64,000 nt of DNA, taken from the IMG/VR virus record IMGVR_UViG_3300042894_007649, positions 1-64,000 of that record; one strand, written 5' to 3'. The translations under genes were made by a program, and so were the position numbers. Positions 1-26,299 of this stretch are shown here, one piece after another. Position 1 is the first letter of the stretch, and each line of letters begins with the position of its first letter. This DNA comes from a virus. Under the pieces are notes generated by a model, which saw nothing but the letters and a program-made list of their open reading frames with translations, had not been told where the DNA came from and ran no database searches.

Positions 1-171
1 ATCGAATGGCAGTTTGAAATAGCCAAGACAATTGGATTCTTTGGTCTTGGCTACTGGTCTTGGCAAGCTTATCACAATTGGCTTTTTACTTTGTTCTGCT
101 GTCTAATGGGTTCCGCAATTGTTTCGATAGCCTATAGGCTATCAGAAAGGAATGAAAATGTACGAGATTAG
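1..171 (+). CDS. 5'-truncated small membrane protein
   Basis: Frame 1 is open from the window edge to TAG at 169-171; hydrophobic (IGFFGLGYWSWQ..WLFTLFCCLMGSAIVSIAY). Confidence 0.5.
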   Translation: MEWQFEIAKTIGFFGLGYWSWQAYHNWLFTLFCCLMGSAIVSIAYRLSERNENVRD

Positions 172-376
172 CTTCTCAAATGGAGACAAACCAGCATTTT
201 ACACGAACTATGAAGAAGCATGTGGAGTTCTACAAGAAATTTACGGAGAAGACATCGTAATTGGTCACGATGGCGACCTAGAAAATGGAGGAGATAGAAC
301 ACTAGTCTGGGAAAATGAAAAAGATTCGGAAAATGACGATGGTAAGAATGCTATAGCATCTATAAGCAAAGTATAA
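152..376 (+). CDS. hypothetical acidic early protein
   Basis: ORF with AAGGA SD (start 152 or 158), followed by a terminator. Confidence 0.75.
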   Translation: MKMYEISFSNGDKPAFYTNYEEACGVLQEIYGEDIVIGHDGDLENGGDRTLVWENEKDSENDDGKNAIASISKV

Positions 377-391
377 TCTAATAAATTCTAT

Positions 392-434
392 AACGGGGCT
401 ATCTGATTAAATCATCAGATAGCCCCGTTTTTTT
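392..434 (+). terminator. intrinsic terminator
   Basis: AACGGGGCTATCTGAT-loop-ATCAGATAGCCCCGTT plus T-run. Confidence 0.85.
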
Positions 435-502
435 GTTATAACTTCGTTCGTGCTTCAACGATTAGAGGTTAGTGATCATTTAACCAACAGAAGGAGTCAG
501 AA

Positions 503-1048
503 ATGCTTGCAAATCAAGATGTGCGCCAGCGTGTCGATGCTGGTAAGAAACAAGAATGCCTGATAATTCAAGCCCTAAACAGGGCTGGAATGAATCTGTC
601 CAACCCAACCAACTCTGAAGACCTTCTTGAGAAGGTTGACGCTTGGGGCCAACATAATGGCCAAAGAATGGGCATCCAGATTAAATTCAGGGAAACAGGC
701 AAAGATTTGTTGTTTGAAGTCTTTGATACTTTCTTTGGTTTTAACAACCCAAAGAACAAGATAGGCAGAGATATGAAGGGAACTGCCTCCCACTACGCTG
801 TAAAGTTCGACAAAAACATAGTTCTTGTCGAAAAGAAACAGGCCGAAGAAGTAATTCAAGAAATGCTCGACGAGGCCCGATGCAATGGATGGTCTGAAAG
901 GAATCAATCTAGCCAGACCTTGTATTACGAGTCAAACAATCATGAGCTTCAACTTAAACTTCAAAACGACCCAGCAGACGGGCGTAAAAAGATTGTTGCC
1001 TACATTCCTAAAGAATTCTTCAGTAACTGCAAATCATATGCAGCATAA
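503..1048 (+). CDS. putative PD-(D/E)XK-fold nuclease-like protein
   Basis: AAGGAG SD; pattern G..QE.....EKVDAW.....GIQIKFR resembles the E/D/(Q)xK nuclease core. Confidence 0.5.
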   Translation: MLANQDVRQRVDAGKKQECLIIQALNRAGMNLSNPTNSEDLLEKVDAWGQHNGQRMGIQIKFRETGKDLLFEVFDTFFGFNNPKNKIGRDMKGTASHYAVKFDKNIVLVEKKQAEEVIQEMLDEARCNGWSERNQSSQTLYYESNNHELQLKLQNDPADGRKKIVAYIPKEFFSNCKSYAA

Positions 1049-1060
1049 GGAGTTATATCA

Positions 1061-1426
1061 ATGGAATTTGATAGTAATCAAGAGATAGCAAACGCATACG
1101 GATTGCCGTATATGTTTCAAGAAGCTGAAGACTATGTAATGGAGGAACCTGACGTTTCGCTTAAGCGGATCGTTGGGATGAATAAAGTGGTATCTAGGTG
1201 GATAGAACGCCATCGACGCATACCAAGCAGTAACCCTAATGCCCAACCAGAAGAAAGGAAGATGGGTATATGGTTAAAGGTACTGATGTTCTATTCAGAC
1301 GTTATGGTAGACCCAACAGATGAAAACAAGAAAGAACGGGAGGAAAACGAAACATGCCATAAGTCATGTCAATTCACTATAAGATCAGGGTGCTATCCAG
1401 ATTCAAAAGATGAAGAATTTAACTGA
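1061..1426 (+). CDS. hypothetical protein (helicase-associated-domain-like motif)
   Basis: AAGGAG SD; WIERHRRIPS...EERKMGIWL. Confidence 0.55.
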   Translation: MEFDSNQEIANAYGLPYMFQEAEDYVMEEPDVSLKRIVGMNKVVSRWIERHRRIPSSNPNAQPEERKMGIWLKVLMFYSDVMVDPTDENKKEREENETCHKSCQFTIRSGCYPDSKDEEFN

Positions 1427-1447
1427 GTCCCAACCAAGGAGAATAAG

Positions 1448-1672
1448 ATGAACAATCGTGATCGATACTATGAATTCGTTGTACGAAGGCCTTTTGGAAC
1501 AGTTGAGAATATATTCAAAAAGGATTCAACCTTCAAAGCAATTGTTCGACCTCTGGTTAAAGACCTGAAAGAATACTTCGCTATCCAGCCAGAAGGCGAA
1601 ACTGATTTCACAGTCATCCCTTGTGTCAATATCAAGTTCAAAGAAGAAGAAGCCGAAGTGAATGACATCTGA
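1448..1672 (+). CDS. hypothetical protein
   Basis: AAGGAG SD, operonic. Confidence 0.75.
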   Translation: MNNRDRYYEFVVRRPFGTVENIFKKDSTFKAIVRPLVKDLKEYFAIQPEGETDFTVIPCVNIKFKEEEAEVNDI

Positions 1673-1687
1673 TTAAAGGAGAATCAT

Positions 1688-1873
1688 ATGCCAAAGATAA
1701 CAGTTTGGTTCGACGATATATCGCAAGATAAAGGATTTATCGTCGATATAGTGGAAAAAGACAACTGCATTACACTAAACGTCTTCAATGACATGATCGA
1801 TGCCATAAATTGGGCAAAACAATATGCCAATAAACGTAATATAAAATTTGAAGACCTTACGCAGTCTTGGTAA
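1688..1873 (+). CDS. hypothetical protein
   Basis: AAGGAG SD, operonic. Confidence 0.7.
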   Translation: MPKITVWFDDISQDKGFIVDIVEKDNCITLNVFNDMIDAINWAKQYANKRNIKFEDLTQSW

Positions 1874-2024
1874 TTTGGTAAAGAATTATCAGAAAATACT
1901 TTGCCCTGATAATGCTTTTGAGAAAACCATGATCGTTGTAAGAAAATCAGTAGGAAAAACAGTATAATCAAGGATGTAGACGACAAGCATATTGTCGTCT
2001 ACATCCCCCAAAGGAATAAGTGTC

Positions 2025-2120
2025 ATGGAAAGATACTTCATAATGCTAATGATAGTCTTCACGTTTATCCTTTTTTTTAAGGATACGATGAAAGCATCTT
2101 CTTACCTGAATAACAATTAG
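2025..2120 (+). CDS. 31-aa hydrophobic peptide
   Basis: AAGGA SD; MERYFIMLMIVFTFILFFKD...; preceded by TATAAT and hairpin GATGTAGACGACAA/TTGTCGTCTACATC. Confidence 0.45.
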   Translation: MERYFIMLMIVFTFILFFKDTMKASSYLNNN

Positions 2121-2130
2121 GAGCAAAGCC

Positions 2131-2529
2131 ATGAGAAGCATGATGCTTTTGGCCTTGTTCACAACAGGTTGTGCGAGTTGCTGCAAGAGAGTGGAGATAA
2201 TTGAGGTTTATGTACCAGAAAGACTCCCACATATCATCAAGCAACTCCCAGATCCTGATCTGTATGATGAGCAGAACAAGCCATATCACTTTACTCCTCC
2301 CATCATCCTCGAACCATTCAGACCAACAATCCAATCTCCTGAACCATTGCCATTCAGGAATACAACACCAATCGAACCAGCACCAAGATCAACCATGAAC
2401 ACCGAACAGAAAGATCGGTTCACGGTTACATCAAAAAAGGTTGAGACTATTCTCAAAGTATGTCTCACAGAGAACGGACCTAACTACGGTCCACCAAATA
2501 TATATTGTGAAATAAACTGGAAGTGGTAA
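2131..2529 (+). CDS. putative Pro-rich lipoprotein
   Basis: AGGAG SD; MRSMMLLALFTTGC lipobox-like N-terminus; terminator at 2551-2584. Confidence 0.6.
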   Translation: MRSMMLLALFTTGCASCCKRVEIIEVYVPERLPHIIKQLPDPDLYDEQNKPYHFTPPIILEPFRPTIQSPEPLPFRNTTPIEPAPRSTMNTEQKDRFTVTSKKVETILKVCLTENGPNYGPPNIYCEINWKW

Positions 2530-2638
2530 TATAACACAATATAAAAACATAAAATATCCTGCCAATATGGCAGGATATTTTTTTACTTATAACTTCGTGC
2601 GCTTCCTAGCGATTAGTAATTGTACCAAGGAGGTTGAA

Positions 2639-2839
2639 ATGAATAACTTGAATGTGCGAATGAAGGCCCATGTGACATTCATTTGGAACAACAACGAAAC
2701 CCTAACCCTTGCTGCTGATGAAACAGCAAGGGATAAGGTCATGGAATTGAAAATAAAGATTGATGCTTGGGGACAACCAAGAATCATGACGGGTGTATCA
2801 TGCAGCGTCGAATCAAGAAACACTTCAAGAAACACTTAA
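2639..2839 (+). CDS. hypothetical protein
   Basis: Start reassigned to ATG 2639 after AGGAGG and the promoter at 2589. Confidence 0.7.
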   Translation: MNNLNVRMKAHVTFIWNNNETLTLAADETARDKVMELKIKIDAWGQPRIMTGVSCSVESRNTSRNT

Positions 2840-2850
2840 GGAGCAATTCA

Positions 2851-3099
2851 ATGCAACCAGTCATTTTTCTACAAGGCGACGAAGCATATGATATCATCGA
2901 TCTTGACGATAAAGATCGTGATATCATGATCAAAACCTTGATGGAGTACCTACCAGATGTACTACCAGAACCCGAAAATATAAAACCCGAAAACCTAAAC
3001 TATAGAATTGTCTTCACTCATAGTGAAGGTGATAGAAAGTATACAATTGGATACACGACAGGCGATGGTGGATGTGTTGGTGTCTATTTGGCAAAATAA
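2851..3099 (+). CDS. hypothetical protein
   Basis: Start reassigned to 2851 after AAGGAG. Confidence 0.7.
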   Translation: MQPVIFLQGDEAYDIIDLDDKDRDIMIKTLMEYLPDVLPEPENIKPENLNYRIVFTHSEGDRKYTIGYTTGDGGCVGVYLAK

Positions 3100-3173
3100 A
3101 TTGCCTATAACATCGTTCAGCCGTGAACGATAAGAAAGTGTAAGGGTTTTGATCCAACCAACAGGAGAGAAAG

Positions 3174-3440
3174 ATGCCTATATTCGTGACAATGACCGAC
3201 AAATTTATGTCGGGATGGGGTGAAGCGGAAGGAAAAATAAACAAGTACGTTATTGAGTGTTCTTGCCATCAAGAGGCCCAAATCTGCGCTAAAAACGCTC
3301 GCTTAAGAAGCGAGATGAAATATGTCAACATCGTTTCAAAGAAGCCTTACTACAATCAAGAAAGGTATCTGGTTTCACTTAAAAAGTTTTCAGAACTTGG
3401 TTCTATATGGACACAAGACCCAGACAACAAAGGAGATTGA
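3174..3440 (+). CDS. hypothetical phage protein
   Basis: AGGAG SD after promoter 3107; MTDKFMSGWG motif. Confidence 0.8.
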   Translation: MPIFVTMTDKFMSGWGEAEGKINKYVIECSCHQEAQICAKNARLRSEMKYVNIVSKKPYYNQERYLVSLKKFSELGSIWTQDPDNKGD

Positions 3441-3441
3441 T

Positions 3442-3615
3442 ATGAACCGCTCAGAATTCATACATATATCCGAAATAATAGATGCTTTAAATAAGCATAA
3501 AATTGTTTTAAAGTCAATACTGTACGATTTGGACTTTTCAGAAAAATATTATGATGCCTTAAGAAACGAAATGGATCGTATGATAGCGAGAAGAGAGTAC
3601 ACGATAGAAGATTGA
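3442..3615 (+). CDS. hypothetical protein
   Basis: Start reassigned to 3442 after AAGGAG. Confidence 0.65.
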   Translation: MNRSEFIHISEIIDALNKHKIVLKSILYDLDFSEKYYDALRNEMDRMIARREYTIED

Positions 3616-3639
3616 CAAACACCACTTAAGGAGATTGAT

Positions 3640-3945
3640 ATGAAAGAGTACTACGAGTTTGAAACTACGCCTTCTGAAGAACCTTGTCAGCAACTTGGTC
3701 CAAAGTACGACCAAGACCTAGCAAGAAAGGAAGCAAGGCGAACTATTGATCAGATCGTTCGCCAATTTGGTGAACCACCAGAAGGATCAAGGTTCAGCAT
3801 AACAAGCAGTCCACACGAATTCGGAAGCTACTATAGCATCCGATTCAAGTATGACGACAATAATGAAGAACACTATAAGTATCTAACCAATGTAGACGAA
3901 AACTGGCCCAAAGAATATGATAATCAAGAATGCTCAACAACGTAG
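3640..3945 (+). CDS. hypothetical protein, paralog of 4067..4399
   Basis: AAGGAG SD; shares TP.EEP..LGP.YD...A...ARRT.DQI.R..G.PPEGS with the next gene. Confidence 0.8.
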   Translation: MKEYYEFETTPSEEPCQQLGPKYDQDLARKEARRTIDQIVRQFGEPPEGSRFSITSSPHEFGSYYSIRFKYDDNNEEHYKYLTNVDENWPKEYDNQECSTT

Positions 3946-3952
3946 AGTATTC

Positions 3953-4009
3953 AAAAAGCCTCGTAGAATATTCCACAAGACATGTGGATTATTCTACGAG
4001 GCTTTTTTT
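3953..4009 (+). terminator. long hairpin terminator, duplicated at 4408-4463
   Basis: GCCTCGTAGAATATTCCACA-AGACA-TGTGGATTATTCTACGAGGC plus T-run; near-identical copy after the paralog. Confidence 0.8.
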
Positions 4010-4066
4010 ATCTTAACATATCATTATGCTAGTAGTAATTGTAATTAACCACAAGGAGTAATTAAG

Positions 4067-4399
4067 ATGATCTGGACACCATTCCATCTGGTTGAATCGT
4101 GTGACTTCGATATAACACCAAGAAAAGAACCTATACATGATAAACTTGGTCCAAATTATGACCTAAATGCTGCCATGGCAGATGCAAGACGCACACTCGA
4201 TCAAATCCTGAGAGTCTCCGGTCAACCTCCAGAAGGATCGCTCCTTCGTATCGATGAGACCCTTCGTATCGATGAGACATTGGAACCACATATTTTAATA
4301 TGTCTTACAATAAGATTTACATTTAACAAAGAATCAAAAGAACACTCAGATTATCTAGTCAAAATTTTTGATAACTTTCCTGAAAAATACGATTCATAG
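4067..4399 (+). CDS. hypothetical protein, paralog of 3640..3945
   Basis: AAGGAG SD; internal in-frame duplication LRIDET-LRIDET. Confidence 0.75.
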   Translation: MIWTPFHLVESCDFDITPRKEPIHDKLGPNYDLNAAMADARRTLDQILRVSGQPPEGSLLRIDETLRIDETLEPHILICLTIRFTFNKESKEHSDYLVKIFDNFPEKYDS

Positions 4400-4577
4400 T
4401 ATTCAACAAGCCTCGTAGAGTATTCCACAAGACATGTGGAGTATTCTACGAGGCTTTTTTTTTATAAACAGATATAACAATAATTAAGAAAACACACATG
4501 AATTGCCTATAACTTCGTACTGGACTCTACGATAAGAAAGTGTGGCGAGAACGATTGTTGTTTCAAGGAGTCTGAAA

Positions 4578-5033
4578 GTGAACATCATTTCTAAAGAGTT
4601 CGTTGTTGCTGGCAAGTCAACCTTCACGCTGGCACTGCCAGAAGCTTACGCAACAGAGAACGGCCTAAAGCCGCACTACACATTCAAAGTGCGGTTTAAA
4701 GAAGGCCAGAATGGATTCAATGACACGTTCTTCGTGTCACTGCTCACTGGCCCAGACAACAACAGCAGTTACACTTATCTGGGCATACTAAACCCAGATA
4801 ACGGGCAGATCAGGACTACTGCAAAGTCCTGCCTGAATGGCGAAAGCCTTCAGGTGAAACTAATCAACCGTGCTTTGAAACTGGTCTGGGAAAACAATAC
4901 CCAGCCCCTGATCGATAAGGGCTTCGCTCTCCACCATGAGGGCAAATGTGGTCGATGTGGAAGGAAGTTAACGGTTCCTCTCTCGATTGAGACTGGAATC
5001 GGGCCAGAGTGTGCCAGTAGAATGGCTGCGTGA
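4578..5033 (+). CDS. DUF6011-like zinc-finger protein
   Basis: GTG start after AAGGAG; C-terminal CGRCGRKLTVPLSIETGIGPECA; terminator at 5041-5078. Confidence 0.8.
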   Translation: MNIISKEFVVAGKSTFTLALPEAYATENGLKPHYTFKVRFKEGQNGFNDTFFVSLLTGPDNNSSYTYLGILNPDNGQIRTTAKSCLNGESLQVKLINRALKLVWENNTQPLIDKGFALHHEGKCGRCGRKLTVPLSIETGIGPECASRMAA

Positions 5034-5099
5034 TCAGCCAATCCCCCTTGCCAAACAAAGGCAAGGGGGATTTTTTTATGTCAAAATTAATTTGATATA

Positions 5100-5465
5100 C
5101 TAAGATACCTCTTCAACAACACCTGATAAATGAATTTCTTTTGGTACAGGTTTCCATACAACAAGTTTATTAGCCATGAATGGTTTACCTCCAGCTTTTC
5201 TGTTTACTGCGATTGTTATATGCTTTTTACTATTGACGCTTGGCACTTCTGTTTGCACACCAACTGCCATAACCTTGTCATCGACAGCAACAGAATTAAC
5301 AAACAAGTCAACTTCTTGGCCAAGATATTCTTGTGCAGGACCACTGCTTGATGAACCAATGTTTATTGTCATGTGATGACATATTAATTCCCAATCAGGT
5401 GGCAAAGGGAATTCATTTATCAATTGTGACCTGCTGTTCTCGTCCAACACAATCGCTGTATACAT
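5100..5465 (-). CDS. 2H phosphoesterase (RNA-repair type)
   Basis: Two HxT motifs: HHMTINIG and KHITIAVN. Confidence 0.75.
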   Translation of the reverse strand: MYTAIVLDENSRSQLINEFPLPPDWELICHHMTINIGSSSSGPAQEYLGQEVDLFVNSVAVDDKVMAVGVQTEVPSVNSKKHITIAVNRKAGGKPFMANKLVVWKPVPKEIHLSGVVEEVS

Positions 5466-5566
5466 TTTAAATAAACCTCAGTAATATATAAATAAAATTT
5501 AATTGCTAAACCAACAACCTTCATGATAGCATTGAACCAGCATAAGGCAAAACAGGAGAAAAACTC

Positions 5567-5716
5567 ATGTTCAAAGTTCTAGACTGCCAATATAATCGTG
5601 ATCACCATCCAAACATAGTTGGATATATACTAGAACTCAAAGAAATACCAATAGACTGCATAGTAATGTACAACTCAGGATACAAAAAACTCGTAGAATA
5701 CTCAACAAGCATGTAG
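5567..5716 (+). CDS. 49-aa hypothetical protein ending inside a tandem repeat
   Basis: AGGAG SD; MFKVLDCQYNRDHHPNIVG...YSTSM*. Confidence 0.5.
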   Translation: MFKVLDCQYNRDHHPNIVGYILELKEIPIDCIVMYNSGYKKLVEYSTSM

Positions 5717-5810
5717 AATACTCCACAAGACCGTAGAATACTCAACAAGCATGTAGAATACTCAACAAGCATGTAGAATACTCCACAAGACCGTAGAATA
5801 CTCCACAAGC
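5691..5810. repeat. 6 x 20-bp tandem repeat NNGTAGAATACTC(A/C)ACAAG(C/A)
   Basis: Six contiguous 20-mers directly visible; same motif as the arms of the 3953 and 4408 hairpins. Confidence 0.95.
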
Positions 5811-6056
5811 ATATATGATATTACACAAAAACATATGAAGCTAAACAAATATATCAAAATATAAAAGTCTATATCACAATATAATGTGTTGTTGAAGTAC
5901 AAGACTTCAATAATTTTTCAAGTCTTGTACTTTACGATTAACTCTTAAAGTCTTGTACTTTACGAACATCCTAATCCAGCATAGAATGATTTGCTTATAA
6001 CTTCGTTCGTCTTCGTGCGATTAGAAGGTGTACCTATAACCAACAGGAGTGTTAAC

Positions 6057-6350
6057 ATGCCATCCTTTGTGCGTGAGTATGACGAAGTGAAACTTGAAAA
6101 CAACCTTTACGGCGTGAAGGTTGAAGGCGAGTACTGGGTATCCAGTTTCGAGCGTCAGCAGGGCGACTATGAGTCGTCCTGCTTCGGAGAGGTAGACATT
6201 GAGGTAGAAGGCCAAATCGTTGAGATCATCGATCTCAACGACGAAGAACGCAAAATTGAGGGACAGGAATTCCTGTCCCTCACAGAAAAACTAAAACATC
6301 TAATTGATATCGAAGACGACCAAATCAACTGGGAAAAACTGGAAGGATGA
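6057..6350 (+). CDS. acidic hypothetical protein
   Basis: Start reassigned to 6057 after AGGAG and promoter 5997; terminator at 6360-6397. Confidence 0.75.
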   Translation: MPSFVREYDEVKLENNLYGVKVEGEYWVSSFERQQGDYESSCFGEVDIEVEGQIVEIIDLNDEERKIEGQEFLSLTEKLKHLIDIEDDQINWEKLEG

Positions 6351-6546
6351 TGTGAAACAAAAAGATAGCAGGACTAAACATCCTGCTATCTTTTTTTATT
6401 TTAAGGTTCTCATTATAGTACAAGACTTGAAGAATTCTTTTATTCCTCTGCTTCACAAATAACCTGCTTATAAATTACTTATAAGTTCGTTCATCCTTGT
6501 GCGATAGGCAAGTGTGGCAATTACTATTGACTGAAAGGTGAAAACC

Positions 6547-6972
6547 ATGAACGCAGCAAACGAAAATAGCATCATCGACTTATCCAAAAACAGCAGTATC
6601 CGAGAAAGAATCCGAGAACAAGAAGAAATAAACAGGAAAGACAATGAGAAGAGACGGCAAACGGAACGGATCATCGTCCGTGCCATTTTGACCAAAGCAA
6701 AGAGGGAGGGCTATGCCATAGCCCTCGATAACGGGGAGGAGATCATAAAGCTGTCTCCCCTAAAAACTGTGAAGGCAATGATTGAAGAATGCTTCAGCGT
6801 CGATGACGAAGCATTGCTGTTAGAAAAAGACGGCAAAAAAGGTTGGGTTCGACTTGTGTACGGAAACACAGGTTTTGATGTCATATGTGATTACTCACCG
6901 AGACTCGATGACTTCCTAGACACAATTCTAGAGAAGTCTCTGTATCACGAAAGGAAATACTTTAATGACTGA
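6547..6972 (+). CDS. hypothetical phage protein
   Basis: After promoter 6481; GWVRLVYGN.G.DVICDYS motif; start 6538 or 6547. Confidence 0.8.
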   Translation: MNAANENSIIDLSKNSSIRERIREQEEINRKDNEKRRQTERIIVRAILTKAKREGYAIALDNGEEIIKLSPLKTVKAMIEECFSVDDEALLLEKDGKKGWVRLVYGNTGFDVICDYSPRLDDFLDTILEKSLYHERKYFND

Positions 6973-7132
6973 TGTTAGACAGGAAGTAAAGTGGGAAGTA
7001 CAAGGTGTTATATTCTGGACAAGATATAACATCTTGATAGATTGGGATCAAGATACCGCTGAGACATTTCCAAAATGGCTCAGAAGCAATCTAGAGTCCA
7101 TTAACGTGGACTGCTCATATCTAGATGTGTGA
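6965..7132 (+). CDS. 55-aa ORF overlapping serial hairpins (CDS or structured RNA)
   Basis: AAGGA SD, overlaps the previous stop; followed by a 19-bp-stem terminator at 7141-7194. Confidence 0.45.
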   Translation: MTDVRQEVKWEVQGVIFWTRYNILIDWDQDTAETFPKWLRSNLESINVDCSYLDV

Positions 7133-7494
7133 ACAAACACATATTGATATAGCATACTATCTTCTGTGTAGTATGCTATATCAATATTTTTTTTGTTTTA
7201 TTTTTCTGTGTAGTACAAGACTTTAAAAATTCTTCAAGTCTTGTACTATAAAATAAATTTTAAAGTCTTGTACTATAAAAACAACTCTTCAAGTCTTGTA
7301 CTATAAGTACATCCTAAATAAGTAAAACAAAATAAAACTTATAACCTCGGTCGGCCTTGTGCGATAGGTAAGTGTAGGGAGGACGACCCTACACGACCGA
7401 AGTTCAAATAATTGCTTATAACTTCGGTCGGCCCTGTACGATAGGTAAGTGTAAGGGGGCGATTGATCCACCTTACTTCATTGGAGTCTGCGCC

Positions 7495-7695
7495 ATGTTG
7501 ACCAAGAAAACGATTCTTGTTTCCCTCACTGGTGGCCGCAAGGCCACCGTAAAAGCCCTTTCAAAGGGCGATCTTTGGGATGTGCTCCGTACCCACGGGT
7601 ACGAGCCACGGGAAATCAAGGGATATAAAGTTTTATCCCACGAAATTGTGGATTCGTGGACCAAGCCTTCGGCTTGGTTCCACATAGCAGAATAA
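7495..7695 (+). CDS. cassette ORF, hypothetical
   Basis: GGAG SD after promoter and hairpin; followed by terminator. Confidence 0.8.
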   Translation: MLTKKTILVSLTGGRKATVKALSKGDLWDVLRTHGYEPREIKGYKVLSHEIVDSWTKPSAWFHIAE

Positions 7696-7698
7696 AAC

Positions 7699-7908
7699 AA
7701 AAAGATAGCAGGACTAAACATCCTGCTATCTTTTTTTATTTTAAGGTTTTCATTATAGTACAAGACTTGAAGAATTCTTCAAGTCTTGTACTATAGGTAC
7801 ATCCTAAACAAGTAAAACAAAATAAAACTTATAGCTTCGGTCGTCCCTGTACGATAGGTAACTGTAGGGAGGACGATTGATCCCCCCTACTTCATTGGAG
7901 TTTGCGTT
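7699..7908 (+). repeat. ~210-bp intergenic module (terminator-palindrome-A-rich tract-promoter-hairpin-SD)
   Basis: Near-identical copies at ~8286-8490, 8726-8987 and 9250-9428; partial copies at 6360-6440, 7210-7494, 9757-9926 and 10067-10147. Confidence 0.95.
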
Positions 7909-8277
7909 ATGAAGACTGCCTTCCTTGCCAAGGACCTTCACAATCTCCCTGATATCCAGATGGCACTTTCTGATGCCCTGAAAAGTGGCCACGATGAGCT
8001 ATGGCTCACGGGCCACTTTCAGTGGCTCTTTGAGGACCACCCCAGCAGCCAGTGGGTCGGGCGATCTGGCCCAACTTTTAGTGTCAAATTTAATTTAGCC
8101 ACGAATTCGTGGCTAACTGGTGATGGTAAACGCATCATCAGGACCGCATCAGCTACCACTCAGGCGGTGGCTGAGTTGATCCAGATGTCTGCTATAAAAA
8201 ATGATAGCAGAATTGTCATACCCATCAGCTTCAGTGTTGGCGACACTGAAGATTATAGCGAAGGCGATGATGATTAA
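7909..8277 (+). CDS. cassette ORF, hypothetical
   Basis: Lies between two modules, with SD. Confidence 0.8.
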   Translation: MKTAFLAKDLHNLPDIQMALSDALKSGHDELWLTGHFQWLFEDHPSSQWVGRSGPTFSVKFNLATNSWLTGDGKRIIRTASATTQAVAELIQMSAIKNDSRIVIPISFSVGDTEDYSEGDDD

Positions 8278-8490
8278 ACATAAGAGATAGCAGGATGTAA
8301 CATCCTGCTATCTTTTTTTATTTTAAGGTTTTCATTATAGTACAAGACTTGAAGAATTCTTCAAGTCTTGTACTATAAGCACATCACAAACAAGTAAAAC
8401 AAAATAAAACTTATAGCTTCGGTCGGCCTTGTACGATAGGTAAGTGTAGGGGGGGCGAGTGATCCACCCTACTTAATTGGAGTTTGCGCT

Positions 8491-8718
8491 ATGGCAAATG
8501 TTAGTGCCCTCATCCGCATGGGGGCCGATAAGGCTCTCGTGTCATCCGTCATGGGACGTGAGTCCCGATGCGTGACGGGGTCAATTAAAGGGTCACCCGT
8601 GCGGGTGATCCTGCGTTTTGGTCAGGCCACACATATAATGGGCAGCGATGCCTGTTTATGTGATGCGGTCAAGGCCGCAATTGGCAACCCAAGAACGGAA
8701 ATCAGGCTAGTGGCCTGA
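8491..8718 (+). CDS. cassette ORF, hypothetical
   Basis: Lies between two modules, with SD; GC-rich relative to flanks. Confidence 0.8.
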   Translation: MANVSALIRMGADKALVSSVMGRESRCVTGSIKGSPVRVILRFGQATHIMGSDACLCDAVKAAIGNPRTEIRLVA

Positions 8719-8987
8719 TTCCCTTAGATAGCAGGATGTTACATCCTGCTATCTTTTTTTATTTTAAGGTTTTCATTATAGTACAAGACTTGAAGAATTA
8801 TTCAAGTCTTGTACTATACAAAAATTCTTCAAGTCTTGTACTATAAAAACAATTCTTCAAGTCTTGTACTATAGGTACATCCTAAATAAGTAAAACAAAA
8901 TAAAACTTATAACTTCGGTCGGCCCTGTACGATAGGTAAGTGTAAGGGGGACGAGTGATCCACCTTACAACACAGGAGGCTGCGACA

Positions 8988-9161
8988 ATGGCTGATTCAG
9001 ATTGGTCCGTGCGGGACGAAAAGTCACTCCAACTGGAGGCTAAGGCCCTCCTGCTAGAGCAGGAGGCCCTCTGGAAGTACGGGGGAAACCCCAAAAACTT
9101 CCCGCAGGACGTGCGGGAAGCCATCAACGCAGCATGGGCTGCGTACGAGGCCTCCCTGTAA
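8988..9161 (+). CDS. cassette ORF, hypothetical
   Basis: Start reassigned to 8988 after AGGAGG. Confidence 0.75.
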   Translation: MADSDWSVRDEKSLQLEAKALLLEQEALWKYGGNPKNFPQDVREAINAAWAAYEASL

Positions 9162-9428
9162 ATTGTGATAGAGTGAGATAGAGGGAGATATCTCCCTCTA
9201 TCTTCTTTTTAACTTTGATATCACAAGATATTTAAATATATCTTGTGATATCTTTTTTTATTTTAAGGTTCTTATTATAGTACAAGACTTGAAAAATTCT
9301 TCAAGTCTTGTACTATAAGCACATCCTAAATAAGTAAAACAAAATAAAACTTATAGCTTCGGTCGGCCTTGTACGATAGGTAAGTGTAGGGGGGACGAGT
9401 GATCCCTCCACTTAACAGGAGATGCGAC

Positions 9429-9737
9429 ATGAAAAATTTCATCAATCTTACCCCACACACCATTAACCTGACCAATGGGGCCGCTTATGCGGCCTCTGGT
9501 CAGGTCGCAAGGGTGTCAAGCACCCACACACCATTCGATGCGGATGGTGTGGCGAGCATTCAATGGGGGGAGGTGACAGGCCTCCCCGCCCCACAAGATG
9601 GGGTGATCTACATTGTCAGTGCCTTGGTAGCGCAAGCTGCCAAGAGATCGGATGTAGTATCTCCTGCAACTGGGCACCCCGCATGTGTGCGGGAAAATGG
9701 ACAGATACAATCTGTCCCCGGATTCGTCCGTTCATAA
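9429..9737 (+). CDS. cassette ORF, NLTPH-motif phage protein
   Basis: Start reassigned to 9429; INLTPHTI...GLPAPQDGVIYIVS.LV motif. Confidence 0.8.
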   Translation: MKNFINLTPHTINLTNGAAYAASGQVARVSSTHTPFDADGVASIQWGEVTGLPAPQDGVIYIVSALVAQAAKRSDVVSPATGHPACVRENGQIQSVPGFVRS

Positions 9738-9926
9738 AAAGCAACTAGATAGCAGGACATTATGTCCTGCTATCTTTTTTTATACCTGTTATTCTTCAAG
9801 TCTTGTACTATAAGTACATCCTAAATAAGTAAAACAAAATAAAACTTATAGCTTCGTTCGGCTCACTACGATAGGTAAATGTAGGGGGGACAAGTGATCC
9901 CCCCTACTTCAATGGAGGATGCGAAA

Positions 9927-10043
9927 ATGATTGCTATCATTATGTTGATCGGTATAGGTTGGTACTCTGGCTGGCGTATAATAAAGGAAGATTGGTCATG
10001 GCAATCTATATCTAGCACCGTTGATATCAATGAACGGTACTGA
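9927..10043 (+). CDS. cassette ORF, 38-aa membrane peptide
   Basis: GGAGG SD; MIAIIMLIGIGWYSGW... Confidence 0.6.
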   Translation: MIAIIMLIGIGWYSGWRIIKEDWSWQSISSTVDINERY

Positions 10044-19238: not shown

Positions 19239-20576
19239 ATGCTTAAAAATATGATAAACAAATATAATCCTAGAATAAATCCATATCTTGAATTTGTTTA
19301 CAAAAAGAATTATGGCGTTGTTGACAGTTATCTTTTTGAACAAGATGATGTTCTAACAGGAAATCCTTCACAGGGAGATTTTCAGCAAAGTGGATCTAAT
19401 GCACAGCCACAAAAAATACCAAAATTTGATGCTGGAAAAATTCTAGGTTCCTTCACATCTGGATTTAAGAAGTCTTATGATGCTTCCAGTGTTTTTAGTC
19501 CAGAAGAAATACAGATGTATGAGGGCATGAAGAGTAAAATTGATCCATATGTTAAAAAGGCTATCGACTTTTGTAATAACCCTACTATGCAATTTTTGTT
19601 GAAATATCTTAAAATTTCATTGCCTCTTGGCGTTGCTGTAACCGCTGCTGCGCTTGTGGGCGGATCTGTACCAATGGTTACAGTAGTTTATTTTGTGCAG
19701 AAATATTTTGCCTCTGCTACGGCTTGGTTGATAGGACTAAAACATCATAAAGAAGAAAAGCATGAGTCTTTTAGTTTTAGTGATTATTATCATAGAAGAC
19801 TTTTAGAAGAAGGCATTTATGACGACATAACTGCTGGAGCGGGAATGGTTGGTGGAGCATTGGGCAATGTCGCTGGTAATGTTTACAAGTATGGTAATTT
19901 AGCTCGTAAAAATTTAGTATCAATGGGATCTTCTGCGCTATCAGCGGCATCATCAATAGGATCTTCTGCCAAAAAATTATTTTCAGACATATGGAGTTCA
20001 ATGAAGTCGAATCCTTATTCTACTACTGTTACTGCTATGAAAATAAGTATTGTTGTTGCTGTTGCCGTTGCATCTGGAGGAGCAGCCGCAACTGCATATA
20101 AAATGTTAACATCACCAGAAGGTTTGTCAACTATTTCTGGCATTGTTGCTACTATGGGAGTTGCTAGTGCTGAAGAAGCAACTAAAACACTTGCAGATGT
20201 TGGCCATCAAATGGCAGCAGGTCATGCAATCGATGCTGCTGGTCATTCAATCGATGCCGCTGGCCATGCAGGTCATGCCGCTCATGCTGCTGGCCATGCT
20301 GGTCATGCCGCTCATGCCGCTGGCCATGCAGGTCATGCCGCTCATGCCGCTGGCCATGCAGGTCACGCTGCTCACGCTGCTCACGCTGCTGGCCACGCTG
20401 CTCACGCTGCTGGCCATGCTGCTCATGGTCATGGTTTGGCTCATGATTTATTACACATGGGTACTCATGGAGCGTCTGATGCTGCGGCACACGTTACTGA
20501 TGCCAGCAAAAAGAATCATCCTGAATTAGCAAAATTGGCCAAAACAATTCATGGATTTACCTTAGGTGGAACTTAA
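19239..20576 (+). CDS. membrane-helix protein with His/Ala/Gly repeat; paralog of 31999..33483
   Basis: Hydrophobic segments; (AAGHAGHAAH)n near the C-terminus. Confidence 0.75.
   Translation: MLKNMINKYNPRINPYLEFVYKKNYGVVDSYLFEQDDVLTGNPSQGDFQQSGSNAQPQKIPKFDAGKILGSFTSGFKKSYDASSVFSPEEIQMYEGMKSKIDPYVKKAIDFCNNPTMQFLLKYLKISLPLGVAVTAAALVGGSVPMVTVVYFVQKYFASATAWLIGLKHHKEEKHESFSFSDYYHRRLLEEGIYDDITAGAGMVGGALGNVAGNVYKYGNLARKNLVSMGSSALSAASSIGSSAKKLFSDIWSSMKSNPYSTTVTAMKISIVVAVAVASGGAAATAYKMLTSPEGLSTISGIVATMGVASAEEATKTLADVGHQMAAGHAIDAAGHSIDAAGHAGHAAHAAGHAGHAAHAAGHAGHAAHAAGHAGHAAHAAHAAGHAAHAAGHAAHGHGLAHDLLHMGTHGASDAAAHVTDASKKNHPELAKLAKTIHGFTLGGT
20214..20445 (+). repeat. coding tandem repeat (30-bp unit, degenerate)
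   Basis: GCCGCTGGCCATGCAGGTCATGCCGCTCAT-type units. Confidence 0.9.
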
Positions 20577-22096: not shown

Positions 22097-23683
22097 ATGA
22101 ACTTTAAACAATGGTTGATTTTATCTGAAGAACTGTATACACAGAATAACACTGCTACTATATTCCATAGAACAATTTTTGAATATGTACGACAAATGAT
22201 GAACGATGGATTTCGAGCAGGTGAGGGTGATTTTCATGGACCGGGACTTTATACCACTTATACATTAGAAGGTACAACAAATTTAGGCTATGGAGATTAT
22301 GTTGTTAAATTAAAAGTAAATAATTTAAATAATTACTTTGTTCTTGAGCCAGATGTTGCCAAACAAATACATGGAAATAATTGGAAATTAAAAGATCAAG
22401 CAAGAATTCTTAAATTGACATTAAAATTAACTGATGAACAATGGCAGAAATACCAAAAAATAAGCGAAGATGGAGAATTTGGAAGTGCTGCTGCATCAAG
22501 AGCATTAAAAGATGATGAACATTTTTTATGGGAACATAAATGCAAAGGTATTGTTTATAATGGAGCGCAAGACGGCAAATGTATATGTGTGTATGCACCT
22601 TATGAAGGACTTAAGTTTTTGGCATATGCATATGCACCAACACCTACGACTGTAGATTTTATTGAGAAAAATTGGATTAAATCTGGTCAAGGTGTAAGTA
22701 TTAGATCAATATCTGATCTTAAGTTCCCAAATGAGAAAATTGGTTTTACTTCAGTTGAAAAACAATATGACCTTGAAGAAGAAAAAGTTATTCCTTCACA
22801 AATTTTAGATGATGTTCGCAAAAGTGAATATGTAAAATTAAGATTTTATATGAAAAAAAATAAATTAACTGGCGATAATGTTTTTCATTTGCTTCTTGGC
22901 GCACCTGACAAAGAAAAAATGGCAGAAATATTAGGTTCAGACAATATTAATAAAATAAATCGTGAATATGTAAGATTTTTGCTTGATAGCGCATCTAACA
23001 GACAGGAAATGATAAATTTAATAATTAAATATAAAACAGAATTTTCTGGTGAAGATGTTCATAATTTGCTTAGTGGTGCATCTGACAAGGAAAAAATAGC
23101 AAGAATATTAGGTCAAAATAATATTGATAAATTAACTGTTCGTCATGTTCATAATTTGCTTAGTGATGCATCTGACATAGAAGAAATGGGAAGAATATTA
23201 CGTCAAAATAATATTGATAAATTAACTGATGGTCATGTTCATAATTTGCTTAGTGGTGCATCTGACAAGGAAAAAATAGCAAGAATATTAGGTCAAAATA
23301 ATATTGATAAATTAACTGTTGGTTCTTTTTATGGTTTGCTTAGTGGTGCATCTGACAAAGAGAAAATAGTAGAAATATTAGGTCCAGACAATATTAATCA
23401 ATTTTCTGATCATCATGTTTATTATTTGCTTAGTGGTGCATCTGACAAAGATCAAATGGCAAGAATATTAGGGCAAGAAAATATTGAAAAATTATCTAGC
23501 GATAATGTTCATAGTTTGCTTTATAGAACACTTGACAAAGAGAAAATGGCAGAAATATTGGGTCCAAAAAATATCGCTAAATTATCTGACGATTATGTTA
23601 AATATTTTATTGATAATGCAAAAAATCCAGAAGAAATGGCAAGAATATTAGGTAAAGAAAATATTGAAAAAATACACAAGTAA
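22097..23683 (+). CDS. ART-like N-domain plus ~9 variable 30-aa helical repeats
   Basis: IFHRT...HGPGLYTT...YGDYVVK; repeats KL(T/S)xxxVxxLLxxAxDKxxMARILGxxNI. Confidence 0.75.
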   Translation: MNFKQWLILSEELYTQNNTATIFHRTIFEYVRQMMNDGFRAGEGDFHGPGLYTTYTLEGTTNLGYGDYVVKLKVNNLNNYFVLEPDVAKQIHGNNWKLKDQARILKLTLKLTDEQWQKYQKISEDGEFGSAAASRALKDDEHFLWEHKCKGIVYNGAQDGKCICVYAPYEGLKFLAYAYAPTPTTVDFIEKNWIKSGQGVSIRSISDLKFPNEKIGFTSVEKQYDLEEEKVIPSQILDDVRKSEYVKLRFYMKKNKLTGDNVFHLLLGAPDKEKMAEILGSDNINKINREYVRFLLDSASNRQEMINLIIKYKTEFSGEDVHNLLSGASDKEKIARILGQNNIDKLTVRHVHNLLSDASDIEEMGRILRQNNIDKLTDGHVHNLLSGASDKEKIARILGQNNIDKLTVGSFYGLLSGASDKEKIVEILGPDNINQFSDHHVYYLLSGASDKDQMARILGQENIEKLSSDNVHSLLYRTLDKEKMAEILGPKNIAKLSDDYVKYFIDNAKNPEEMARILGKENIEKIHK

Positions 23684-23701
23684 TTTATCTAAATAAACAT
23701 T

Positions 23702-25075
23702 ATGAACTTTAAACAATGGTTGATTTTATCTGAAGCGATAACTGTTGATGGAAAAGAATTTCGTGAGCCATTGAATGCATTGAGACACATACAAGAAACT
23801 CATCCAAACCCAGAAAATATTTTTGTTACATTTACAGCAATTGACAAAGTTGGAATCAATCCAAAAAGTGGATACGATACGCCTCTTGGAATTTACTTTT
23901 ATCCATTAGATTATGTGGTTAAAAATGAAATGAATGTTCCATTTGCTGGAGATAAACCTTATATTAATGTTTGCGAGTTTACAAGACCAGACAAAATATT
24001 GCATATGAATCCTGATATAGAAAATCAGAAGGGATTGGAATTACTTGATATATTTCCAAAAGAAGAAGTTGATGCTGCAATAGAAAGCCTTGAGAACAAT
24101 TATGAATTGCGTAGTAATTATTCTAAATTATGGCTTATCACAAGAGAAATAGCAGGAAATAAACCTGTTTTATGGAATGCTAATTTAAGAAAATGTGGGA
24201 TTGATGGATTTGTAGATCATAATACTAAAACAATTCATGAAAGCGAGCCAACTCAAGGTGTTGTTTTTACTGGTACTGCGTTGAGAAGGATACTTGTGAT
24301 TCCACAAATATTGAGGAAGCCATTACCTGATATAAACAAAATTACTGTACATCAGATTGAAAACTTGTTAAAAAATAGAAATTTGTTTAATACTGATATT
24401 CAAAAATTTCTTGATGACGCAAAAAACAAAGATGAAATAGCAAGAATTATAATTCAATATAAACCAGAATTGTCTAATGAAGATATTTATACTTTGCTTT
24501 ATTATGCAGAAAATAAAGATGAAATAGCAAGAATATTGGGTTCAGACAATATTAATAAATTATCTAATGATGATATTTATGGTTTGCTTAGACTTACAAA
24601 AAACAAAGATGAAATGGCAGGAATATTTTCATCAGACAATATTAATAAACTATCTGATGAAAATGTTTTTAATTTGCTTATTTATACAAAAAACAAAGGT
24701 CAAATGGCAAGAATATTAGGTCCAGACAATATTAATAAATTAACTGCTAAAAATGTTTCTGATTTGCTTGAGTATGCATCTAGACATAAAAAAATGGCAG
24801 AAATGGCAGAAATATTAGGGCAAGAAAATATTAATAAATTAACTAATAGTGGTGTTTATAATTTGCTTCGTAATGCATATGACATAGAAGAAATGGCAAG
24901 AATATTAGGTAAAGAAAATATTGATAAATTATCTGGTAATACTGTTCTTGGTTTGCTTCGTTATGCATCTAACAAAGATCAAATGGCAAGAATATTAGGT
25001 AAAGGTTATGCATCTAACAAAGATCAAATGGCAAGAATATTAGGTAAAGAAAATATTGAAAAAATACACAAGTAA
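23702..25075 (+). CDS. repeat protein, paralog 2
   Basis: Identical MNFKQWLILSE start; KVGINPKS.YDTPLGIYFYPL domain; ~7 repeats. Confidence 0.8.
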   Translation: MNFKQWLILSEAITVDGKEFREPLNALRHIQETHPNPENIFVTFTAIDKVGINPKSGYDTPLGIYFYPLDYVVKNEMNVPFAGDKPYINVCEFTRPDKILHMNPDIENQKGLELLDIFPKEEVDAAIESLENNYELRSNYSKLWLITREIAGNKPVLWNANLRKCGIDGFVDHNTKTIHESEPTQGVVFTGTALRRILVIPQILRKPLPDINKITVHQIENLLKNRNLFNTDIQKFLDDAKNKDEIARIIIQYKPELSNEDIYTLLYYAENKDEIARILGSDNINKLSNDDIYGLLRLTKNKDEMAGIFSSDNINKLSDENVFNLLIYTKNKGQMARILGPDNINKLTAKNVSDLLEYASRHKKMAEMAEILGQENINKLTNSGVYNLLRNAYDIEEMARILGKENIDKLSGNTVLGLLRYASNKDQMARILGKGYASNKDQMARILGKENIEKIHK

Positions 25076-25093
25076 TTTATCTAAATAAACATT

Positions 25094-26299
25094 ATGAACT
25101 TTAAACAATGGTTGATTTTATCTGAAGCGATAACTGTTGATGGAAAAGAATTCCGTCAGCCATTGGATGCGTTGAAATACATCCAGAATAATCATCCAAA
25201 TCCAGAAAATCTTTTCATTACATTTACAGCAATTGACAAGGTTGGCATCAATCCGAAAAGTCAATATGATACACCTCTTGGAATTTACTTTTATCCATTA
25301 GATTATGTGGTTAAAAATGAAATGAATGTTGAATTTGCTGGAAATCAGCCTTATATCAATCTTTGTGAATTTATAAGGCCAGACAAAATATTGCATATGA
25401 ATCCTGATATAGAAAATCAGAAGGGATTGGAATTACTTGATATATTTCCAAAAGAAGAAGTTGATGCTGCGTTGCGAAGTATCGAAGAAAAATATGAATT
25501 GCGTAGCGACTATTCAAAATTATGGCTTGTGACGAAAGAACTTGCTTCAGATAAACCTATATTGTGGAATGCCAATTTAAGAAAATGTGGCATTGATGGA
25601 TTTGTAGATCATGGCACTAAAACAATTCACAGAAGTGAGCCAACTCAAGGCGTTGTTTTAACAGGTACTTCATTAAAAAGAATACTTGTGATTCCACAGG
25701 TATTATTTAGCAAACAAGGCGACAGTATACCAGTAAGAAAAACATCAATTGATATAAGCAAAATTCCTAAAAGAGATATTGAAAAATTATTTAAAAATAG
25801 AATCATAACCAATAGTGATGTTATTAGGTTCATTAGTTACTCATCAGATAGAGATAAGGCTATAAAAATTATAATTCATTATAAAAAAGAATTATCTAGC
25901 GATAATGTTCATTGGATGTTTGAATATGCTGTTGATAAAGATGAAATTGGAAGAGAATTAGGTCCAGACAATATCAATAAGTTGTCTGAGAATCAGATTG
26001 GTAGTTTAATTTATTCTCCAAATACCAGAAATAAAATACTAAGAATTATAGTTGGATATAGAAAAGAAATACCAAATCGTAATATCAAGTTTTTGCTTGG
26101 AAGTGTTTATTCTAGGCCTGAAATAGAAGAGATGGCAGAAATATTAGGTTCAGGCAACATCAATAAATTATCTCACAATGATTTTTCTCAAATAATTGAT
26201 TATTCATATTCAAAAGATTTATTGAAAAGCGTATTGAGAAACCATTATACAGGATCAGATTCACAAATAATTTCTTTACTAACCAGTGAGTACCAGTGA
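25094..26299 (+). CDS. repeat protein, paralog 3
   Basis: N-domain highly similar to 23702; repeats more diverged. Confidence 0.8.
   Translation: MNFKQWLILSEAITVDGKEFRQPLDALKYIQNNHPNPENLFITFTAIDKVGINPKSQYDTPLGIYFYPLDYVVKNEMNVEFAGNQPYINLCEFIRPDKILHMNPDIENQKGLELLDIFPKEEVDAALRSIEEKYELRSDYSKLWLVTKELASDKPILWNANLRKCGIDGFVDHGTKTIHRSEPTQGVVLTGTSLKRILVIPQVLFSKQGDSIPVRKTSIDISKIPKRDIEKLFKNRIITNSDVIRFISYSSDRDKAIKIIIHYKKELSSDNVHWMFEYAVDKDEIGRELGPDNINKLSENQIGSLIYSPNTRNKILRIIVGYRKEIPNRNIKFLLGSVYSRPEIEEMAEILGSGNINKLSHNDFSQIIDYSYSKDLLKSVLRNHYTGSDSQIISLLTSEYQ

Follow-up and report, generated by a model that had tools for sequence, protein, structure and literature searches.

Hypervariable 30-residue helical repeats with a pyrimidine-ending codon signature on putatively injected effectors of giant freshwater phages

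How does a phage gene come to carry tandem repeats in which seven codons per unit are hypervariable and end, in the great majority of cases, in a pyrimidine? The question is raised by genes A, B and C, which lie side by side on the + strand of a 64,000-nucleotide (nt) stretch of DNA (the window), the first 64 kb of the 81.6-kb IMG/VR record IMGVR_UViG_3300042894_007649 (G000), and which share the same 11-residue start and all end in 30-residue repeats. CheckV rates this record as 19% complete, with an estimated whole-genome size of ~430 kb; the 81.6 kb thus come from a much larger genome, that of a giant freshwater phage, marked as a myovirus by the baseplate genes they contain. A first-pass annotation of the window had proposed that the repeats form a variable binding surface, attached to packaged domains resembling ADP-ribosyltransferases (ARTs) and possibly diversified by gene conversion or by a trans-acting process like that of a diversity-generating retroelement (DGR). 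Our analysis probably answers the question without a retroelement: ordinary mutation, diversifying selection and unequal crossing-over would explain these repeats on leader-tagged, putatively packaged effectors.

The repeats themselves were found as first described, with Tandem Repeats Finder (TRF) and the codon layout agreeing on a helical unit of 30 amino acids (aa) or 90 nt. Gene A (P0001, 528 aa; 22097-23683, + strand, from the open reading frame [ORF] list and its translation) encodes a leader, an N-terminal domain of its own unlike that of B and C, and nine repeat units. Its array occupies 22862-23668 (+; TRF period 90, codon register and nhmmer), with units starting at 22862, 22952 (degenerate, 29 aa), 23039, 23129, 23219, 23309, 23399, 23489 and 23579. 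Gene B (P0002, 457 aa; 23702-25075, +) encodes the leader, a conserved N-terminal domain (approximately residues 12-205) and an array at 24388-25059 (+; codon register and nhmmer) that comprises a degenerate unit (24388-24447), units starting at 24467, 24557, 24647, 24737 (with a 3-aa insertion), 24836 and 24926, and a terminal half-unit duplication, which is a perfect in-frame tandem copy of 45 nt at 24960-25049 (+; TRF period 45, 2.0 copies, 100% match). TRF placed the 90-nt arrays at 23055-23589 and 24420-25000.

Read in the register K L T/S x x x V x x L L x x A S D K E K M A R I L G ..., the unit has exactly seven columns (4, 5, 6, 8, 9, 12 and 13, the x positions) with the highest amino-acid entropy (2.47-2.71 bits), as the first-pass annotation had noted; core columns range from 0.35 to 0.9 bits, and columns 15, 26, 27 and 30 are intermediate (1.8-2.1 bits). 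The earlier estimate that ~90% of x codons end in a pyrimidine was likewise borne out by counting: in genes A and B, 95 of 105 x codons are NNY (Y, pyrimidine) against 77.4 expected (z = 5.7), and 90 of 105 are NNT against 56.5 expected (z = 7.5), with expectations conditioned on the amino acid and on the contig's own codon usage, so that the excess over the genome background stays once the amino acid is controlled for. Of the 41 x codons whose amino acid can be encoded with either kind of ending, 38 are Y-ending. The tallies (GGT 12, GGC 2, GGA 0; AGT 7, AGC 2, TCT 2, TCA 0; CGT 4 versus AGA 3; CTT 3) partly sustain a proposed contrast with the gga, tca and tta found elsewhere in these genes: the preference for ggt, agt and ctt is clear when the N-terminal domains or other parts of the contig serve as the reference, but not against all other codons, as scaffold Gly25 and Leu11 are also ggt and ctt. 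Scaffold codons of genes A and B showed no excess (NNY 134 of 323, 147 expected), and neither did the N-terminal domains of genes A, B and C. The AT skew is positive at 22-26 kb and would favor A rather than T. Amino-acid composition and strand skew were rejected as sources of the bias, as the excess survives amino-acid conditioning and the skew points the opposite way.

The same excess of Y-ending codons recurs in independent lineages (L009, 21 of 21; L011, 35 of 43; L040, 38 of 46; L042, 18 of 22; L044, 15 of 19). Pooling 102 unique units, which represent 10 or more phage lineages, gave 215 choice codons, of which 180 are Y-ending (84%, against 109 or 51% expected; z = 10), with the scaffold of the same units at expectation. 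An artefact of a few recent duplicates was rejected, since the bias holds on these 102 unique units and also when G000 and L006 are left out (z = 8.1).

Comparison with relatives indicates how the units change. In a codon-by-codon alignment of gene B with its L006 orthologue (82% identity), 17 of 42 x codons differ non-synonymously and 1 synonymously, compared with 5 and 3 of 125 scaffold codons and 36 and 14 of 210 N-terminal codons. Third positions of x codons are not exempt: they differ in 4 of 42 codons, three times non-synonymously, and account for 4 of the 22 nucleotide differences in x codons. Among seven close homologues the x variants occur as two or three alleles per unit that are shared in a mosaic (e.g., GDH-VYN versus DEN-VFN), and by this pattern in the aligned sequences the x alleles are therefore inherited and recombined. 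P0125 is short of P0001 by exactly two units and matches it at 100% identity everywhere else, P0009 lacks one unit, and the 45-nt half-unit duplication of gene B is also present in P0007, a 99%-identical homologue. Synonymous codons, moreover, are homogenized within a lineage (column 2, tta versus ctt; column 23, ata, att or cta; column 17, aaa or aag; also columns 16 and 24), and such lineage-wise switches are a mark of concerted evolution. Of the two diversifying processes initially suggested, recombination thus has its traces in the indel of two repeats, the deletion of one, the mosaic alleles, the half-unit duplication and the homogenized codons; the retroelement, which fared otherwise, is taken up below.

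AlphaFold2 (AF2) predicts two helices per unit for the repeat arrays, with a predicted local distance difference test (pLDDT) score of ~90; the N-terminal part of the gene A model is poorly predicted and its repeats again reach ~90, and gene B modeled with an alignment scored 87. In these models helix A covers positions 4-13, with V7, L10 and L11 as a buried stripe, and helix B covers positions 17-29. The seven x positions are every non-core position of helix A, all predicted within a confident two-helix repeat. Stacking of the helices A would accordingly create an unbroken surface, with Tyr, Asp, Asn, His, Ser and Gly as frequent residues, which most likely selects a host target; the predicted exposure of helix A, together with the change of 17 of 42 x codons against 5 of 125 in the scaffold, supports the variable binding surface that had been proposed.

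The closest structural neighbors of the array are ankyrin-repeat proteins (AnkX, K1 and RNase L), at VIA Z scores of 7-9.3 that are not decisive, given that Z below ~13 is common among helical repeats (root mean square deviation, 3.5-6.3 Å over 210-230 residues). The likeness to ankyrins, including designed DARPins and the ankyrin effectors of poxviruses and Legionella, lies in a solenoid of stacked helix-turn-helix units whose first helix carries the variable residues on its exposed side; the unit here, however, has 30 residues rather than 33 and lacks the TPLH motif and the beta-hairpin loop. Pfam returned nothing above noise for genes A-C (Ank_2 at E = 0.25 and 12.4 bits against a cutoff of 27.3, in P0002 only), and hhalign of the unit profile against the ankyrin parts of the homologues P0094, P0099 and P0102 gave probabilities of ≤0.2%. 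Membership of the ankyrin family by sequence was rejected on these two results. A search of PDB sequences had a single significant match, the de novo designed repeat 8VD6, and no solved natural homologue. PHROGs gave nothing above noise on genes A-C, and a SLED score of 29 bits was rejected as the sum of weak repeat matches in which no single stretch passes. The best reading is a new two-helix repeat that is ankyrin-like in architecture only.

At the other end of the proteins, the leader MNFKQWLILSE is identical in all three genes (A, 22097-22129; B, 23702-23734; C, 25094-25126; all +). At least 15 ORFs of the contig with otherwise unrelated bodies share a related leader, M-x-x-F-(K/F)-(Q/E)-(F/W)-(L/V)-...-E (window 10893-43852 and G000 65675-66397), for example MKTFKQFVENKEE, MISFKQFLEDQE and MNISFREWLFAEE. 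This is the pattern of capsid targeting: an N-terminal leader of ~10 residues that ends in [LIM]-x-E and is common to unrelated proteins. In phage T4 the internal head proteins and Alt, an ADP-ribosyltransferase, carry a capsid-targeting sequence and are packaged and injected. MNFKQWLILSE would by analogy be a T4-type capsid-targeting-like peptide that ends in L-x-E and is cleaved after Glu, and the products of genes A-C are probably packaged, injected effectors. The analogy with T4 internal proteins and Alt extends to the short shared leader ending in [LIM]-x-E and, in B and C, to the putative ART-type domain that follows it; the T4 internal proteins differ in that they are not known to have a hypervariable repeat module.

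The N-terminal domain of genes B and C had no Pfam match at E ≤ 1. Foldseek searches of BFVD with that of gene B yielded weak matches to ART-PolyVal-like proteins (E = 1.8e-3 to 3.4e-2; TMt = 0.35-0.47), a family described previously (PMC5512222), and the enzymatic domain of B and C is probably ART-PolyVal-like. Residues 15-205 of P0002 (window 23744-24316) also align weakly with the cyanophage A4 pre-ejectosome chain 9k3a_B (VIA Z = 6.7; 16% identity), a likeness that would fit a packaged or ejected protein. The attachment of the arrays to packaged ART-like domains, as first put forward, is thus backed by the leader in at least 15 ORFs and the weak fold match of the B and C domain, but does not extend to gene A, whose N-terminal domain differs.

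On the explanation that we favor, genes A-C would encode effectors composed of a capsid-targeting-like leader, an enzymatic domain (ART-PolyVal-like in B and C) and a C-terminal alpha-solenoid of 30-residue repeats. The x surface would diversify by point mutations at codon positions 1 and 2, and at position 3 where these are non-synonymous, with diversifying selection retaining the changes. Units would be gained, lost and shuffled, and the remaining unit DNA homogenized, by unequal crossing-over and gene conversion, acting between units, between paralogues and between phages that circulate together. The NNT signature would then go back to ancestral NAY codons (gat, aat, tat and cat or cac), from which the codons for Gly, Ser, Arg, Leu, Val, Thr and Ala would derive in one step, with the T inherited. 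The least diversified arrays, those of a complete relative (G014, introduced below), have the x codons gat aat aat / tat aat / cac tat, which suggests that the ancestral x codons were NAY, with GGT, AGT, CGT, CTT, GTT, ACT and GCT single steps away. Scaffold codons, too, are frozen across the family, at S3 (tct, 96% versus 26% in the background), V7 (gtt, 97% versus 52%), L11 (ctt, 98% versus 26%), L10 (ttg, 80% versus 21%), A14 (gca, 96% versus 43%) and A21 (gca, 99% versus 43%). Since these synonymous codons are as frozen as those at the x positions, the T of x codons is one case of a general conservation of the unit at the DNA level and, if anything, less strict than in the scaffold.

Several points weigh against this explanation. 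The fraction of identical codons is 0.73-0.78 in the repeats compared with 0.48-0.57 in the N-terminal domain that these genes also encode, and third-position differences between gene B and L006 number 4 of 125 in the scaffold compared with 28 of 210 in the N-terminal part; this stronger synonymous conservation in the repeats is incompletely explained. Toy simulations, in which one site evolved with amino-acid selection either held constant or left to fluctuate, gave 48-64% Y-ending choice codons against the 84% observed, and steady-state positive selection alone was therefore rejected as the source of the bias, which needs either persistently young (duplicated or homogenized) units or direct synonymous constraint. 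That the proteins are packaged, lose their leader, act as ARTs and bind a target is in each case an inference, and the claim of a single variable face is based on secondary structure and repeat geometry. Finally, no gp21-type prohead protease (PF03420) was found in the 81.6-kb fragment, which represents 19% of the genome.

Direct synonymous constraint is the core of the alternative that survives best, which we consider unlikely: selection at the nucleotide level, for homology between units that assists shuffling or for a feature of the mRNA or of translation rate, would hold the third bases of both x and scaffold codons, with positive selection acting at positions 1 and 2 of the x codons. Nucleotide-level selection would account for position-specific codons that are 96-99% conserved over 10 or more lineages, although identity between their N-terminal domains is only 42-60%, for the lower synonymous divergence of the repeats within a gene, and for the nearly uniform T endings of helix-A codons and A endings of helix-B codons, and simulations of stationary selection cannot yield the bias. 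However, the lineage-specific synonymous switches homogenized within arrays (columns 2, 16, 17, 23 and 24) are a hallmark of concerted evolution and not of a fixed constraint, and a similar picture would result if phages exchanged repeat modules horizontally.

Because simple selection models miss the observed codon bias, we also keep in view, as an improbable option, a non-canonical templated or targeted process that would alter only codon positions 1 and 2 at the seven x positions of each 90-nt unit and leave the rest, including synonymous sites, constant across many phage lineages.

Marginally less credible than such a process is the idea that the array reads nucleic acid in the manner of TALE, PUF or PPR proteins, one base per unit by way of the variable residues, and thereby directs the enzyme to DNA or RNA of the host. 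A protein language-model search (ESM Atlas) placed the array nearest to clusters of TAL-effector repeats, at scores of 0.79-0.83, where values below 0.9 are leads only; in fold searches PUF and PPR proteins appear alongside many other helical repeats, and near-identical DNA units with few hypervariable residues recall the arrays of TALEs. TALE-like repeats (Xanthomonas TALEs, RipTALs, Bats and MOrTLs) share with ours two-helix units of ~30-35 residues, DNA that is near identical save for few hypervariable codons, evolution of the arrays by recombination and delivery of the carrier proteins into another cell. They differ in having 33-35 residues and two variable columns per unit rather than 30 and seven. 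Pfam TAL_effector had no match at E ≤ 1, seven high-entropy positions are unlike a small discrete code, and the acidic residues D and E, which are common at x positions, would be unfavorable for binding nucleic acid.

The remaining alternative is a trans-acting DGR-like retroelement, located in the unsampled ~80% of the genome or in the host, that would rewrite codons 4-13 of the units from an AAY-rich template. A DGR comprises a reverse transcriptase (RT) along with a template repeat (TR) and a variable region (VR) ~90% identical to it that changes at template adenines, with a GC-rich initiation of mutagenic homing (IMH) element at the 3' end of the VR (PMC8632793). The repeats resemble DGR VRs of the type in Mtd of Bordetella phage BPP-1 (PMC8632793) in several respects: the NNY excess at hypervariable codons, which survives amino-acid control both here and family-wide; an x repertoire rich in Tyr, Asp, Asn, His, Ser and Gly, as is typical of DGR variable regions; a scaffold within the variable block (gtt, ttg and ctt) that contains no adenine, although the chance of this is ~0.08 as estimated from background codon usage and thus not significant; and a location in a phage gene whose product probably takes part in host contact. 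The sequence available covers only 19% of the genome, and the distant relative G014 does have a DGR.

The anatomy of the unit nonetheless speaks against such an origin. Outside the x codons, 19 adenines per 90-nt unit are at least 90% invariant, one of them only 3 nt after the variable block, and the consensus 3' of the block (gca tct gac aaa gaa aaa atg gca aga ata tta ggt) has ~33% G+C, so that the flank is AT-rich and no GC-rich IMH was found at the 3' end of the block. Among the 102 unique units, 17% of x codons are not NNY and end in A or G. Third bases of x codons do vary (T 74, A 6 and C 4). The preferred residue differs from column to column (D4, N6, Y8 and Y13) rather than being Asn throughout, A is retained at codon position 2 in 61% of cases compared with 31% at position 1, and the alleles, as described above, are inherited and recombined. 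Arrays of six to nine tandem 90-nt units with no adjacent TR, RT or Avd also differ from the one C-terminal VR, in a C-type-lectin or immunoglobulin fold, of known systems.

Searches for the missing parts point the same way. The first-pass annotation had observed that no template repeat or RT is visible in the window, and searches of the whole 81.6 kb with the unit profile and RVT_1 agree; a wider hunt for an RT and an AAY template, which it had recommended, turned up no template for the repeats in the 81.6 kb, in 41 related loci or in complete G014. The nhmmer unit profile found copies only within genes A-C in the 81.6 kb and only within arrays in the 41 loci (566 kb). RVT_1 was not found in nine repeat-carrying records (the 81.6-kb record and eight related ones), all of them fragments, with the related ones 5-23% complete. 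G014 (IMGVR_UViG_3300025162_000016) is a complete relative, a jumbo phage of 368,758 bp with terminal repeats, that was found by a repeat-seeded scan and has two repeat genes, and BLAST of the unit DNA against its genome matched only these two genes. It carries a canonical DGR cassette at L063:5639-10216 (~113.6-118.2 kb of G014), with two paralogous Mtd-like targets, whose C-terminal VRs lie at L063 6912-7016 and 8376-8480, bAvd (8553-8903), a TR of 105 nt (8923-9027) and the only RT of the genome (9218-10216). Differences between TR and VR fall at the adenines of AAY codons; the TR matches only the Mtd-like VRs and is unrelated to the 30-residue unit, so the RT serves the Mtd-like VRs only, and G014's own repeats are the least diverse. 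A canonical or nearby DGR was rejected on unit anatomy and on the template and RT searches in these records, and a DGR-like element acting in trans from elsewhere is the least probable of all the explanations considered, very unlikely in our judgment.

Gene B has 259 homologous clusters, and in 94 clusters the repeat module follows other N-terminal domains; all are named hypothetical, and the repeat homologues are known only from uncultured phage and metagenome sequences. No relative of P0002 was found among GenBank phages, and a metagenome scan found no close orthologue (best, 53% identity). Three gene B homologues (P0094, P0099 and P0102) share its leader and N-terminal domain but continue into genuine ankyrin repeats in place of the 30-residue ones. 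With ankyrin arrays behind the same N-terminal domain, and the repeats behind other domains, the 30-residue repeat therefore behaves as an exchangeable targeting module. In L011, L012 and L013 (IMG/VR, three samples), an 18.4-kb stretch identical to the base holds five tandem repeat-bearing paralogues. L016, L018 and L026 come from large complete records in which both the repeat and an RT are absent, and these are uninformative.

Within the window, gene C (P0003, 401 aa; 25094-26299, +) is a paralogue of gene B, with 72% identity in the N-terminal part and more degenerate repeats at 25808-26163. A different kind of repetition occurs upstream of gene A at window 20220-20427, inside the ORF at 19239-20576, where a dense, GC-richer tandem repeat with periods of 9, 21 and 30 nt (units such as CATGCTGCT) stands out from AT-rich surroundings. 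The first 10 kb (window 1-10000) have raised G+C (0.38-0.45) and short ORFs only; Rfam and tRNA scans of the window had no match, and this is therefore not an rRNA or tRNA region.

The arrays are a new helical-repeat variant of repeat-based recognition domains under diversifying selection and concerted evolution, with an unusually clean codon signature, and they seem to make up a family of natural binding scaffolds that has gone unannotated, carried on leader-tagged, putatively injected effectors of giant freshwater phages. A statistically solid NNY signature can arise without a DGR, for which the real DGR of G014 offers a side-by-side contrast, and it should be read with caution. The family-wide freezing of synonymous sites beside hypervariable codons is an evolutionary oddity in its own right. 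For the phages that carry them, the interchange with ankyrin arrays points to an enzyme joined to an evolvable targeting domain, for host takeover or for countering host defenses.

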